Source of the DNA: Eledone cirrhosa
Taxonomy: Eukaryota
Direction of reading: 5' to 3'
DNA: 64,000 nucleotides
Assembly (NCBI GenBank): GCA_964016885.1
Contig: OZ024756.1
Coordinates: forward strand, 37,944,001-38,008,000
Below the pieces are notes generated by a model. The model had not been told where the DNA came from. It made no database searches and saw nothing but the letters and a program-made list of their open reading frames with translations. Of this stretch, positions 98 to 60,763 are shown one piece after another (the first letter of the stretch is position 1; every line of letters starts with the position of its first letter). The translations under genes were made by a program, and so were the position numbers.

Positions 98-213
98 TAT
101 AGAACAGTTTCTACAGGACTAGAAAAGGTTTTCTATATTAAATATTTATACTCTGCTTCGTATTGAGTACCTTCCTTACTGTGGTTACCCCAGATTCAAC
201 CCGGGATAAACTT
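98..213 (+). mobile_element. Family C mini-element: tail plus short fold-back, in (TA)n
   Basis: Shares TATTGAGTACCTTCCTTACTGTGGTTACCCC...CCCGGGATAAA with 60170-60253 and, reversed, with 2386-2542. Confidence 0.8.
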
Positions 214-627
214 ATATATATATATGTATATATGTATATATATATATATATATATATATATATAAACACTCACATTGTACCAAGGACACTGACTAGAAAT
301 GTATCAACATAAAAGCACCATAAAATGTTTGAATTTATTTAAATTCAACCGCTTTGTAAATATGGCCGTATGACTAGATAGACATACACACACACAGACA
401 GACTAGCACACACGCACACATACTAGCACGCACACACACACACACACACACACACACACTTTAACACATTTACAACACATATGTCAGCCATAACACGTCA
501 GCAGACGATAACAAAAGCAGCACTGTCTGTGTGCCAGACAGACATTATCGATTCGATTTAACGAAGAAGAATGGAAGACGGAAAGTGGGTGGGTGGGTGG
601 TGGTATTCTCTATTTATCTGTGTCTTA

Positions 628-783
628 TACACACACACACACACGCATGCACACGCGCACGCACACGCACACGCACACACACACACACACACGCACGCAC
701 ACACACACACACACACACACACACACACACACACACACACACACACACACACACACACACACACACACACACACACACACACA
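628..783. repeat. (CA)n microsatellite
   Basis: Seen directly; it explains the HT/VC ORFs at 531-1000. Confidence 0.95.
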
Positions 784-1044
784 TTTTGATTCGTACGTAC
801 GTACAAATCATGATAAATTAGCTGTTTATATACAGTGCTTTTCCTTCTTGTTAACACTATATATACATACATATATACATACATATATATATACATACAT
901 ATATATATATACATACATATATATATATATACATACATACATATATACATACTTACATATATACATACTTACATGTATGTATACATACATACATACATAG
1001 TCTCTCTCTCTCTCACAGATAAACTCATATATATATATATATAT

Positions 1045-1240
1045 ATAACGAAGGAAATGTGGTAAGGAACCAGGTGGACCATAACGCACCAAAGTACTCA
1101 ATACTTGGGGTAGTAGAGTGGGTAATAGGAACCAGTAAGACCCCGACGGCTGAGCTCAAGCCGTTTCGACGGCTAATTCTGTCCAGAATTAGCCGTCGAA
1201 ACGGCTTGAGCTCAGCCGTCGGGGTCTTACTGGTTCCTAT
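1045..1240 (-). mobile_element. Family A mini-element with perfect 57-bp-arm hairpin (1125-1240) and hammerhead 3' half
   Basis: Arms 1125-1181 and 1184-1240 are exact reverse complements. Contains GAAAC-GGC-ttgagctca-GCC-GTC (stem III plus GUC site). Related copies at 8050, 21687, 30645 and 57575, all flanked by (TA)n. Confidence 0.85.
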
Positions 1241-1320
1241 ATATATATATATATATATATATATATATATATGTACATATATTTCTATATGTCTGTGTCT
1301 ATATATCTGTGTCTATATAT

Positions 1321-1520
1321 ATATTTATTAAAATAACAGATTAAAGTTTAAGCAAAGAATCGCTGCTTTCACCCTTAACGGGATCTTAAAGGGTGAAAGC
1401 AGCGTTTCTTTGCTTAAACTTTAATCTGTTATTTTAATAAATATTTGCTCTACGGTTCTTATATATTTGATATATATTTATCCTTATCGAGCCCTCTTTG
1501 GATTTTAGTCTTATTATTAC
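1321..1520 (+). mobile_element. Family B mini-element with fold-back (1321-1444)
   Basis: Inverted arms turn at CACCCTTAA-cgggatc-TTAAAGGGTG. Related copies at 2580, 22170, 27377, 43558 and 47840. Confidence 0.85.
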
Positions 1521-1608
1521 TATATATATATATTTCTATATGTCTGTGTCTATATATGTATATATATATATATATTTCGATATATCTGTGTCTATATATA
1601 TATATAGA

Positions 1609-1814
1609 CACAGTGAGAAAAACCACAGACCCTCCATCTCAATTCTACTTTTGAAAAGCAGAACTGCGAAACCGGTAATGGAACCAAATAAATATATATT
1701 TTTATAAAAAAAGACTCCAGTTGCATTTTCGATTTCATCTTTTTTCCTTTATACTTTCACTCGTGTAGGACACCTCGTTTTTTTTTTCATTTTGTAAAAA
1801 AACCTCACTTTCTA
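1609..1814 (+). mobile_element. Family D mini-element
   Basis: Near-identical to 7808-8013; diverged reverse copy at 26582-26790; flanked by (TA)n. Confidence 0.85.
1648..1680 (+). ncRNA. Minimal type I hammerhead-like motif, U3-A8 variant (family D)
   Basis: TTGAAAA (1651-57), GCAG-aa-CTGC, GAAA, CCGG, TA. Stem I is weak in this copy. Confidence 0.55.
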
Positions 1815-1883
1815 ATATATATATATATATATATATATATATATATATATATATATATATATATATATATATATATATATATA

Positions 1884-2054
1884 TAAAATATATTAACAAA
1901 TGGAAACTATATTTATAAAACCATATTTATTTTATTATACATATTTCATGTTAATATATTGTATATTTACTCCACTAAATTGTTGAGTGCTTTATATAAG
2001 TTCTAAAACATTTTAAAGCTTGTTGAATCCCAACAAATTAAAAATAACCTCTGC
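1884..2054 (+). mobile_element. Family F mini-element with inverted 5' segment
   Basis: 1884-1948 is the reverse complement of the GAAATATGTATAATAAAATAAATATGG... segment seen at 57339 and 60329, followed by a forward tail containing GTTGAGTGCT. Confidence 0.75.
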
Positions 2055-57740: not shown

Positions 57741-58800
57741 ATATAAACATATATATATATGTATATATATATATATATATATATATATATATATATATAT
57801 ATATATACATATATATATATATATATGTATATATGTATATATATATATATATATATATATATATGTTTATATATATATATATATATGTATATATATCTCT
57901 CTATATATATACACATATATATATGTATATATATATATGTATCTATATATATATATTTACACATATATATATATGAATAATTGCATATACTTATGTCTCT
58001 CTATATATATATATGTAGACATATGTAGACACACATGCATACACATATGTGTTTATACATGTGTGTGTCTGTGTGTGTGTGTGTGTGTCTGTGTGTCTGT
58101 GTGTGTGTGTCTGTGTGTGTGTGTGTGTGTGTGTGTGTATATATGTGTGTGTGTGTGTCTGTGTGTAAGTAATGGGAGGTGTGCATGCAAGTGTGTGATT
58201 ATATATAAAAATTCTCTCAGTATATGCAGACATTAGTGTCTACAATTACGTACTCATGCTCACACATAGATACATACACATAAATACATGCACCAATTAT
58301 ATATACGAGTGTGTGTGTGTGTGTATGTCTAAACACATTGACTTACACACACACACACACACACACACACACACACACACACACATATATATAATAGCAC
58401 AAAAGCGCCATTGATATAACGACGGTTTTATGGCGATTTCAGATTGAATCACTGCCAAAAAGTGGGTCTAACGTTGACCTTCCGCCAGTAGACTTACACA
58501 CAGACACACACACACACACATATAGACACACACGTGTGTGTGTGTGTGCTTATATATATATATATATATATATCTTACAATGGACAATGTAAATATCTAT
58601 GTATCATATTAATGTCATGCCTATATGTTCACTCGCACATACATACACATAATCAAATCTATACACACACACATAGATATTTGTACATAAATATATATAT
58701 ATATAGAGAGAGAGAAAGGATAAGAAGAAGACAGAGAGAAGATAACGATTGTCGTTGCTTTTGAATTTTTGAAATTGTTGTTAGTCGTCAGGAAAATAAG

Positions 58801-59040
58801 AAACCCGGAAGATTTACACGGGACAGATGTACGAGGGAAGAAACCCGGGAGATTTACACGGGGTAGGTACGAGGGAAGAAACCCGGAAGATTTACACGGG
58901 ACAGATGTACGAGGGAAGAAACCCGGGAGATTTACACGGGGTAGGTACGAGGGAAGAAACCCGGGAGATTTACACGGGGTAGATGTACGAGGGAAGAAAC
59001 CCGGGAGATTTACACGGGGTAGATGTACGAGGGAAGAAAC
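58801..59040. repeat. Minisatellite of six 38/40-bp units
   Basis: AAACCCGG(A/G)AGATTTACACGGG...GTACGAGGGAAG, unit lengths 40, 38, 40, 38, 40, 40. Confidence 0.95.
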
Positions 59041-59300
59041 TATCAGAATGAAATTTGCGATTTCATTTATGAATTTCAATGGTAAATGGTTGAGATATAG
59101 CCAATCTGGGGCTCCGTTTAAACTCGTGAAGATGGGGCAACAAAGAGGAATTCTTATCAGAACAATTCCCATGAAAATTCTTTATAAAAATTCTTTATAA
59201 AAAAAGGCAGAGAGGCAATATTTCGACGATGTGATTGAAATTGGTGCTGACATGATAAGTCAGGACCAATTTTGTTGACAATTCTTTTGGGGGTATAGAC

Positions 59301-59750
59301 CAGCGGTTCTCAATGTGGGTTCCACACAGGAGTGTCTGGGGTTCCATGAAAAAAGGTAGAAGAGTATATTTATATTACGACCATATAACGGCGCATGTGA
59401 AGGCGCATCGCTTAGTGGTTAGAGCATTCGGCTTGCAATCGAAAGGTTGTGAGTTCAGTTCTCGGACCGGGTGATGTGTTGTTTCCTTGAGCAAGACACT
59501 TTATTTCACGTTGCTCCAGTTTACTCAGCTGTAGAAATGAGATGATAGGACTGGGGTCCCTATCATAAAAATCACCCAAGACACCTTCTACGAGATAGAC
59601 CTTGGAGGAGGCCAGCTAAACCTGCATAGGTGTGAGCTGTCATACACATCTCGCATACACACACACATATAACGGTATTAGACTTTGGTGTCCTACAAAA
59701 GTTTCTGAACCAAAACGGGTTCCGCGTTTGAAAAGGTTTGGGAAACCTTA
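59301..59750. mobile_element. Possible hAT-type MITE with a nested SINE
   Basis: Starts CAGCGGTTCTCAA and ends AAAGGTTTGGGAAACC (hAT-like termini); no clean TSD seen. Confidence 0.4.
59398..59560 (+). mobile_element. tRNA-head SINE
   Basis: GCTTAGTGGTTAGAGC (A box), GAGTTCAGTTCTC (B-box-like), CCTTGAGCAAGACACTTTATTTCACGTTGCTCCAGT body. Confidence 0.75.
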
Positions 59751-60123
59751 GTCTATCAAGGAGCATGTTACCCAAATGTGGTAACAGTAATCATTTCAAG
59801 GACGAATGGTTGATCTCATTTCAAGGACGAATGGTTGATCTATAAAGATATAAGATATTTCTAGGCGTGAAAGATTTTCTGGCACGATGTGAGAACTAAC
59901 TTACTGGGCAGCAGACTTGGCAATCGATGTGATATAATTTTTACAGCTGAAATCATAGGAAATTGTCTGACGAAGAAGTGAGTATAAAGTTGGTCTCTGG
60001 GAGGATACGATCAACCATACTAATAGAAAGTAAAAGTGATTCTCTATGGTAATTAAAGTCTAACAGTTTAGTGTTAAATTCATTAACACTAAAGGGATAT
60101 TCAAGATCAGCTGACAAATCAAC

Positions 60124-60168
60124 TTCCTGATGATTTCTCTCGAATGAAACAGGTCTAGTCCTGTAGAA
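60124..60168 (+). ncRNA. Type I hammerhead (family C)
   Basis: TTC-CTGATGA-t-TTC-tctc-GAA-t-GAAA-CAGG-tctagt-CCTG-TA-GAA; the family C tail follows to 60253. Confidence 0.75.
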
Positions 60169-60292
60169 ATCATTTCTATATTAAATATTTATACTCTGCT
60201 ATGTATTGAGTACCTTCCTTACTGTGGTTACCCCCGATTGAACCCGGGATAAATAAATATATATATATATATATATATATATATATACAATA

Positions 60293-60347
60293 TATCTGAA
60301 GATAGCGTACCGAAATAATGGTACCCTTGAAATATGTATAATAAAAT
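60293..60347 (+). ncRNA. Type I hammerhead (family F-like), stem I mostly lost at the (TA)n junction
   Basis: CTGAAGA-t.AG.GTACC/GGTAC.CT.t-GAAA-TATGTA-TA-ATAAAAT. Confidence 0.7.
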
Positions 60348-60605
60348 AAATATGGTTTTATAAAGATAATTTCCATTTATTAATATTATTGATCTCTCTC
60401 TCTCTCTCTCTCTCTCTCTCTCTCTCTCTCTCTCTCTCTCTCTCTCTCTCTTTCTCTCTCTCTCTCTCTCTCCCTCTCTCTCTCTCTCTCTCTCTCTATA
60501 TATATATATATATATATATATATATATATATATATATATATAATATATATAATTACTTATATAAATATAATTTAATTACATATATAAATATATATAAATA
60601 ATTAT

Positions 60606-60763
60606 AACAGTGGCATAAAGAGGTACTTAAGTTTCGTTGGGTGCTGGACCCCCAGCGAAACTTAAGTAACTATTTAGTCACTGTTGAAATTATTTATACT
60701 AAACTCGTCCTATGGCCTGAGTGCTCTCTTAGCCTTGGATATTTCTACCAAACTTCTACTACA
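60606..60763 (+). mobile_element. Mini-element with stem II fold-back, hammerhead 3' half and GAGTGC tail
   Basis: TACTTAAGTTTCGTTGGG...CCCAGC-GAAA-CTTAAG-TA; CTGAGTGCTC at 60717. Confidence 0.7.

Follow-up and report, generated by a model that had tools for sequence, protein, structure and literature searches.

Hammerhead motifs in (TA)n-embedded islands of the Eledone cirrhosa genome, probable solo pseudo-LTRs of Penelope-like elements

Minimal hammerhead ribozymes in the pseudo-long terminal repeats (pLTRs) of Penelope-like elements (PLEs), with many families per genome, were published in 2014 (Cervera and de la Pena, PMC4209133). The supplement of Craig et al. 2021 (PMC8557442) lists both a (TA)n preference and a hammerhead for Hydra-1_Obim of Octopus bimaculoides; the combination of PLE, hammerhead and (TA)n is already in print, including this one octopus Hydra element. 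Promoters in pLTRs were described earlier (PMC2377424, PMC3846280), and in vitro the anole PLE Poseidon_Ac uses uncut RNA as its main template, starts reverse transcription internally and shows protein-assisted cleavage (Frangieh et al. 2024, PMC11167929). For animal retrozymes, an origin from PLEs is argued in a 2026 preprint (10.64898/2026.07.22.740005). Here we analyse a 64-kb stretch of Eledone cirrhosa DNA (assembly GCA_964016885.1, contig OZ024756.1, positions 37,944,001 to 38,008,000, forward strand; hereafter the window), in which short islands between (TA)n runs carry hammerhead motifs. These islands are very probably solo pLTRs of (TA)n-lying Neptune-type and Hydra-type PLEs with predicted hammerheads, likely copied by reverse transcriptase (RT) from uncut RNA.

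The original prediction, made from the letters of the window alone, named nine type I hammerheads and counted about 20 motifs with both core halves, several with only the 3' half, and more than ten families. Because descriptors that require consecutive pairs miss families whose stem II has internal mismatches, a fold-aware type I descriptor was used instead (CUGANGA, stem II, GAAA, stem III, UH, and a stem I of at least 3 bp). It recovered 13 perfect-core motifs in the window, including all nine named examples, whose CUGANGA begins at 5878(-), 14502, 20526, 36054, 40978, 47337, 54886, 57302 and 60127. In the shuffled control (100 shuffles, 200-nt blocks), the mean was 0.06 and the maximum 1 perfect-core match per window; a stricter consecutive-pair scan gave 7 matches versus 0.005–0.015 in 200 shuffles. 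A relaxed descriptor, admitting UUGANAA, CAGANGA and one change in GAAA, returned 21 window rows, three of which look like chance (21378, 27329, 44380). Alignment of hammerhead-centred segments from other loci to the window identified 23 copies with both core halves and 20 with GAAA and NUH only, excluding four spurious rows (5957 and the matches to short interspersed nuclear elements (SINEs) at 3888, 33759 and 59475). No hammerhead family appears among the best 150 of 963 Rfam matches listed for the window, which are mostly microRNA-like matches to TA repeats.

We count 14 families in the window (A, B, C, D, E, F, G, H, I, J, K, M, N, O), taking A/A2/A4 as one. The description of the families as unrelated is overstated: D and I have a tail in common, M is sister to N, and two PLE types account for the seven families linked to genes (see below). 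Their positions, in window coordinates, are as follows.

5820..5885 (-), hammerhead of family A, predicted to cut after 5827; this copy extends 5' to ~6900, matching the 3' untranslated region (UTR) of a Hydra-type PLE
14494..14560 (+), family A hammerhead; predicted cut after 14552; element end at (TA)n from 14701
57294..57358 (+), family A2 hammerhead (A superfamily)
60293-60343, motif, and 1890-1950(-), 3' half: other A-type pieces
20486..20675 (+), family B stub, Neptune-type; hammerhead 20521-20559
~20850-21038 (-), second copy of family B; GAAG variant
36049..36104 (+), family C hammerhead, Hydra-type; predicted cut after 36099
40868..41039, family D, head-to-head inverted hammerhead pair, 40868-40935(-) and 40972-41039(+); no link to an open reading frame (ORF) found
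54660..55113 (+), family E, ~430-nt ORF-less unit plus short direct repeat; hammerhead 54879-54923; retrozyme-like
47333..47390 (+), family F hammerhead; more copies at 46982-47039(-), 50588-50645(-) and 23562-23694(+, degenerate)
23152, 47151 and 47170, family F 3' halves
60124..60168 (+), family G hammerhead, its stem III a hairpin; other pieces 85-191 and 2409-2542; no link to an ORF found
42579..42614 (-), family H hammerhead; this copy has TAAA for GAAA; a 3' half lies at 17119-17214(-)
2873..2925 (+), family I hammerhead; this copy has AAAA for GAAA; an inverted tail precedes it
2626..2702 (+), family J, Hydra-type, with the U4A core CAGAAGA family-wide; also 27447-27520
1319-1485, 30868, 43546-43706 and 47840, family J fold-back 3' halves
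1075..1240, family K fold-back pair, Hydra-type, 3' half only; full copies have a U3-A8 core and a long stem II
8050-8223, 21687-21788, 30657-30821 and 57593-57740, further family K copies
7842..7877 (+), family M hammerhead, U3-A8 core, Neptune-type; stub ~7808-8013, second copy 1626-1745
26717..26752 (-), family N hammerhead, U3-A8 core and family-wide GCAA (A13C), Neptune-type
41220..41389 (-), family O, with a long stem II; this copy has a mutation at the first core base; no link to an ORF found

Four further islands lie outside this count. Those at 60600-60760, 50160-50400 and 2160-2360 are fold-backs holding GAAA, a palindrome or near-palindrome, and UH halves, and are probably three additional hammerhead families; among the loci searched, no further copy of 60600-60760 was found. 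The island at 41407-41618 has CUGAUGA at 41557, not followed by GAAA in the window copy; it recurs in several loci and ends at (TA)n.

The abundance of the motifs was estimated from 79 evenly spaced 10-kb stretches (790 kb) on large contigs of the 3.0-Gb assembly. This sample holds 62 CUGANGA, 23 UUGANAA and 10 CAGANGA matches, versus 1.5, 5.7 and 1.1 in shuffles. Eleven decoy cores gave 0–6 matches each in the same 790 kb; CAGANGA was the twelfth core tried, and half of its 10 matches are family J. The CUGANGA density is 78 per Mb (bootstrap 54–103), extrapolating to ~1.6–3.1 x 10^5 motifs genome-wide, and reaches ~100–110 per Mb when core variants are included and background is subtracted. 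Published counts of ~9,000 in Xenopus and 4,000 in coelacanth (PMC4209133), more than 6,000 from 16 families for Acropora, and 126,247 for axolotl (PMC7229834) are an indicative comparison only, because our descriptor is looser; the same applies to setting the ~2–3 x 10^5 estimated here against the ~2,000–9,000 of PMC4209133. The samples contain dozens more hammerhead families that are absent from the window.

The window, at ~200 motifs per Mb, is ~2.6 times denser than the genome mean. It is also rich in (TA)n (17% versus 3.9% in the samples), and across sampled stretches the number of matches tracks TA content (rho 0.39). The location in (TA)n also holds in the genome samples: a (TA)4 lies within 250 nt downstream of 63 of 71 sampled motifs, versus 18.8% of control positions. 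AATAAA, said in the original prediction to follow closely and often, occurs within ~36 nt downstream of 6/14 perfect-core window matches and 14/62 sample matches, against a background of 3.7%; it is frequent, and it is not the rule.

The motifs have the core of a minimal type I hammerhead, namely CUGANGA (or UUGANAA), GAAA, UH, and stems I and II. Pairing is kept while stem sequences change, as had been claimed: across 44 distinct types of stem I, positions 4–6, which lie outside the demands of the descriptor, are paired in 98 of 132 cases, a value that none of 10,000 permutations reached, and family E copies carry compensatory stem I changes. Pairing at positions 7–8 is at background. Among the 62 sampled CUGANGA motifs, stem III is a perfect palindrome in 30 and a near-palindrome or hairpin in 32, while the end bases of stem II are U.U in 21 and A.C, with a possible bulged A, in 6. 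By family, B, C and E have the palindromic form of stem III, and G and K the hairpin form. U10.1-U11.1 is a known natural hammerhead variant (PMC3088659). The U3-A8 core of families K, M and N has also been published (PMC4209133), and two other departures are fixed family-wide, U4A in J and A13C in N. The hammerheads here thus share with those of PMC4209133 the type I layout, the dimer-suited palindromic stem III, the U3-A8 variant, and numerous divergent families in each genome, mostly present as single copies from truncated PLEs. They differ from them in the general absence of G10.1-C11.1, in the hairpin stem III of several families, and in the family-fixed U4A and A13C.

No PLE protein fragment was found inside the window; PLE protein fragments occur in 20 of the 79 sampled stretches. 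Elsewhere in the genome, seven of the 14 families (A, B, C, J, K, M, N) run 5' into PLE genes encoding RT and GIY-YIG endonuclease on the same strand, placing their hammerheads in terminal repeats and bearing out the proposal that the islands are PLE-derived stubs. Family B lies 379–552 nt below an RT+GIY-YIG ORF (at least 7 rows; loci L075 and L229 are one locus). Two direct copies of family M flank a 938-aa RT+GIY-YIG ORF in L231, giving a pLTR-ORF-pLTR layout in which TA-like letters follow the 3' end of the stub and an ATG follows ~25 nt on. Family N follows an ORF in L241, and family C follows one in which both Hydra-type motifs are readable across breaks. Family J is collinear with an ORF-bearing copy for 1.5 kb at 95%, and family K is linked to ORFs in L373 and L375. 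For family A, searched with window positions 6560-6900, 10 of 20 loci have a same-strand PLE endonuclease 397–862 nt upstream; its sister family A3 sits in L046, 1.5 kb downstream of a 488-aa Hydra-type ORF that has an inverted 5' copy. None of the sequence-level outcomes that the original prediction had named beforehand as counting against it occurred.

The ORFs of B, M and N carry a CX4CxxC linker, and those of J, K and A3 carry a CxCX5C linker with CxxC..E..N..CxH after GIY-YIG, a degenerate form of which is present in the A-linked copy L372. From these linkers, B, M and N are named Neptune-type and A, C, J and K Hydra-type, with the qualification that Nematis shares the CX2-5CxxC form. Diagnostic Hydra and Neptune linkers are defined in PMC8557442, whose elements share with ours the C-terminal GIY-YIG, the CxCX5C or CX2-5CxxC linker, the (TA)n preference, inverted 5'-truncated copies, an optional tail and, for Hydra-1_Obim, a hammerhead. 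Pfam matches to RVT_1 and GIY-YIG were obtained for the B and M ORFs, and the best named relative of one PLE protein is from Argonauta (41% identity). The supplement of PMC8557442 lists at least one octopus Hydra family, and its motif differs from those found here.

Conversely, five of 30 GIY-YIG loci have a hammerhead match within ~1.5 kb, one of them weak, and eight more have a sister sequence that the descriptor missed. Two leads were discarded. Walking upstream from family G in the window led to an unrelated old repeat, and an ORF in L031 first linked to family A belongs to a different PLE nested in the A copy with a target duplication. This nested PLE (2378-5450; G000:C19:29864878-29867950) is 5'-truncated, has a CX4CxxC linker and a hammerhead-like motif of its own, and sits at a TA-rich site of family A with a 12-nt target duplication; PLEs insert into one another's TA-like motifs.

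The anatomy of the copies is PLE-like: 3' ends are fixed at one or two sites, 5' ends vary, and inverted copies stand head to head. An inverted copy adjoins the element in 18, 17, 4, 19 and 9 of 30 loci for A, B, F, E and C, respectively. In family A, 3' ends fall into two classes, 63–75 or 156–174 nt below GAAA; tails reach ~100 nt, versus 30–40 in the PLEs of PMC8557442. Many J and K copies, in part retrieved with hairpin queries, turn back within stem II, so that the first half of the core is lost. One family K copy (L374:350-1750) contains instead a non-overlapping inversion of an ORF segment, like the twin priming of long interspersed nuclear elements (LINEs), in contrast to the usual fold-back duplication.

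The 5' ends were analysed in B, M and N copies not selected by the query (J, K and G are prone to TA matches). Among these 67 copies, which include both arms of some insertions and are not fully independent, 38 start at -76 to -57 from the predicted cut, eight in the 213 nt above this band, two further up, seven in or just above the hammerhead, ten below the cut, and two at the cut itself. The last two are both arms of a single family B insertion (L040; G000:C2:100000001-100010000), a possible copy of cut RNA. A template of cut RNA predicts starts at the cut; their rarity therefore points to uncut RNA as the template. In all three families the upstream edge of the band is sharp and lies at -73, and long copies show CCAAT boxes followed by a TATA-like box ~30 nt above it. 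In the window, the family B stub at 20486..20675 starts 69 nt above the cut, directly below the presumed transcription start.

These ends suggest that Neptune-type stubs are likely copies of an uncut RNA leader and not random truncations. The contrary account, that short copies are random 5' truncations or solo pLTRs made by recombination, and that 5' clusters mark a structural RT stop or a splice site, has precedents: 5' truncation is the standard description for PLEs (PMC8557442), and rotifer solo pLTRs were ascribed to recombination (PMC3846280). It also agrees with the wide spread of 5' ends in A, C and F, and with the CAG that opens the B/M/N band, which is a splice-acceptor motif as well. 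We nevertheless regard it as unlikely, given the sharp edge shared by three families below promoter-like boxes. Moreover, family M lacks a pyrimidine tract, and copies abut (TA)n or their own inverted copy and not an upstream exon.

If the islands are solo pLTRs copied from uncut RNA, the GIY-YIG endonuclease would nick (TA)n, and RT would start inside the RNA shortly below the hammerhead, giving the two 3' ends (the 'tail'). In families M and A these sites alternate between A and U, so that pairing with the nicked target is conceivable. For Neptune-type elements, the template would mostly be a transcript starting in the pLTR, and the product a ~200-nt copy from transcription start to RT start with the hammerhead whole. 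Hydra-type copies would be 5'-truncated 3' UTRs or fold-backs, often inside stem II. Head-to-head palindromes may arise by self-priming, most genomic copies would be passive by-products, and motifs whose stem III is palindromic would need to be dimers, or to be aided by protein, in order to cut. This leader-copy model fits the in vitro behaviour of the anole PLE (PMC11167929) and the published pLTR promoters. Poseidon_Ac likewise has a two-site internal RT start that defines the tail, and an uncut RNA template, both deduced here from copy ends; unlike its RT start, which is not target-homologous, the M and A 3' ends lie at TA-like motifs that may pair with (TA)n.

In addition to the linker shared with Nematis and the paired arms among the 67 copies, several observations weigh against this reading. 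The presumed transcription start, RT start and cleavage are all deduced from DNA sequence. In single-strand folding, some motifs only adopt the hammerhead frame (z-scores -2.8 to +0.05); stems I and II are recovered for several motifs, and D and G fold otherwise. Most motifs lack the consensus G10.1-C11.1 pair; 1 of 62 sampled motifs has G.C as the terminal bases of its stem II. Three Hydra-type ORFs returned no Pfam match, the TATA-like box of family N is poor, and no ORF link was found for D, G, H, I and O. Family F has a non-coding 5' extension of more than 1.6 kb; just 1 of 20 loci has a PLE protein upstream, and the link of this family to PLEs is tentative.

Family E behaves differently, in line with the suggestion that some islands are retrozyme-like. 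In L237 it forms 2.4 tandem units of 431 nt (98.5% identity) with two hammerheads and a longest ORF of 69 aa, a closed, ORF-less tandem unit. Of its alignments, 36/67 exceed one unit, ~18 distinct copies cross the unit junction outside the simple-sequence part, and nearly all copies end at one of two 3' sites. Family E shares with non-LTR retrozymes (PMC7229834; Li et al. 2026, 10.64898/2026.07.22.740005) the ~430-nt ORF-less tandem unit, a type I hammerhead and a likely PLE origin. It departs from them in its minimal hammerhead, with a 4-nt palindromic stem III in place of the canonical form with loop-loop contacts, in mostly comprising 1–1.5 units, and in its PLE-type fixed 3' ends and inverted copies; it is also known from DNA alone. 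Variants from three runs of one sample, possibly the source of the assembly itself, place none of the 23 listed rows in the 47 nt that span the core (54884-54930), whereas the 151 nt above contain 22 variable places; this hints weakly at constraint. Family E thus resembles a non-LTR retrozyme that PLE enzymes would move: a 431-nt non-autonomous unit, likely borrowing the PLE machinery from a tandem or circular RNA.

Extending this account to most families, as independent retrozymes whose small circular RNAs are cut and rejoined by the hammerhead and occasionally written into DNA, appears improbable. Family E fits, with its closed unit, more-than-unit copies, lack of an ORF and variant-free core, and five families have no ORF link; against it, the seven linked families continue 5' into PLE genes and not into their own tails, and starts at the cut are confined to the two arms of one B/M/N insertion. 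That the palindromic islands are miniature inverted-repeat transposable elements (MITEs), non-autonomous DNA transposons with TA target sites, and resemble hammerheads by chance is scarcely credible: many are near-perfect inverted repeats in TA runs, but their arms are unequal, inversion centres move while outer ends stay fixed, no fixed terminal inverted repeats with transposase were found, extension into RT/GIY-YIG genes refutes it for A, B, C, J, K, M and N, and shuffles, decoy cores and the stem I test exclude chance likeness.

Tentatively, and with somewhat less than even confidence, we propose that this hammerhead density is among the highest known because Neptune-type PLEs mostly copy their own ~200-nt leader to a target-paired RT start, that the same machinery moves a 431-nt circular retrozyme, and that U4A and A13C are either active variants or signs of cleavage-free spread. 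What seems new is the genome-wide ~78 motifs per Mb, the family-fixed U4A and A13C, and the start-band stubs of Neptune-type families. In a literature search with most subscription papers outside its coverage, we found no report of start-bounded PLE stubs, none of U4A or A13C (supplements may list such variants), and no paper pairing hammerhead ribozymes with cephalopods by that term; the supplement rows of PMC8557442 gave no stub census. A recent octopus repeat annotation names Penelope-like families, and its main text is without 'ribozyme' or 'hammerhead' (PMC13282606); in repeat annotation, such stubs are likely to be classed as MITEs, as SINEs or as unknown.

Both the density and the start-bounded stubs, together with the retrozyme-like family E and two unusual fixed cores, bear on the role of PLE hammerheads and on how pLTRs, tails and palindromes form. 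Hundreds of thousands of insertion products in many families could map RNA start and RT start, each stub doing so to base resolution if the leader-copy model is true, and the copies could show that nearly all derive from uncut RNA. Natural core variants (U4A, A13C, U3-A8, U10.1.U11.1) and monomer- and dimer-type stem III are available for comparison.

Other repeats were seen in the window. A TA-embedded element with a fixed end and a fold-back copy, in which no hammerhead was seen, occurs at 8338-8452, 22810-22916 and 25190-25390 and takes in part of a common SINE-like repeat also found at 13828, 31293 and 34036. Related TA-embedded islands with partial inverted ends and no assigned hammerhead lie at 24314-24536, 27793-27980 and 28520-28618. 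Long (CAC/AAC/TAC)n triplet arrays at 9060-12570 and 56110-56640 have an extreme strand skew that produces spurious long ORFs. Lastly, C-terminal fragments resembling LINE RT are present at 52826-53240 (-), 1-76, 34433-34803, 43889-44245 (-) and 19271-19640, several of which end at (TA)n.

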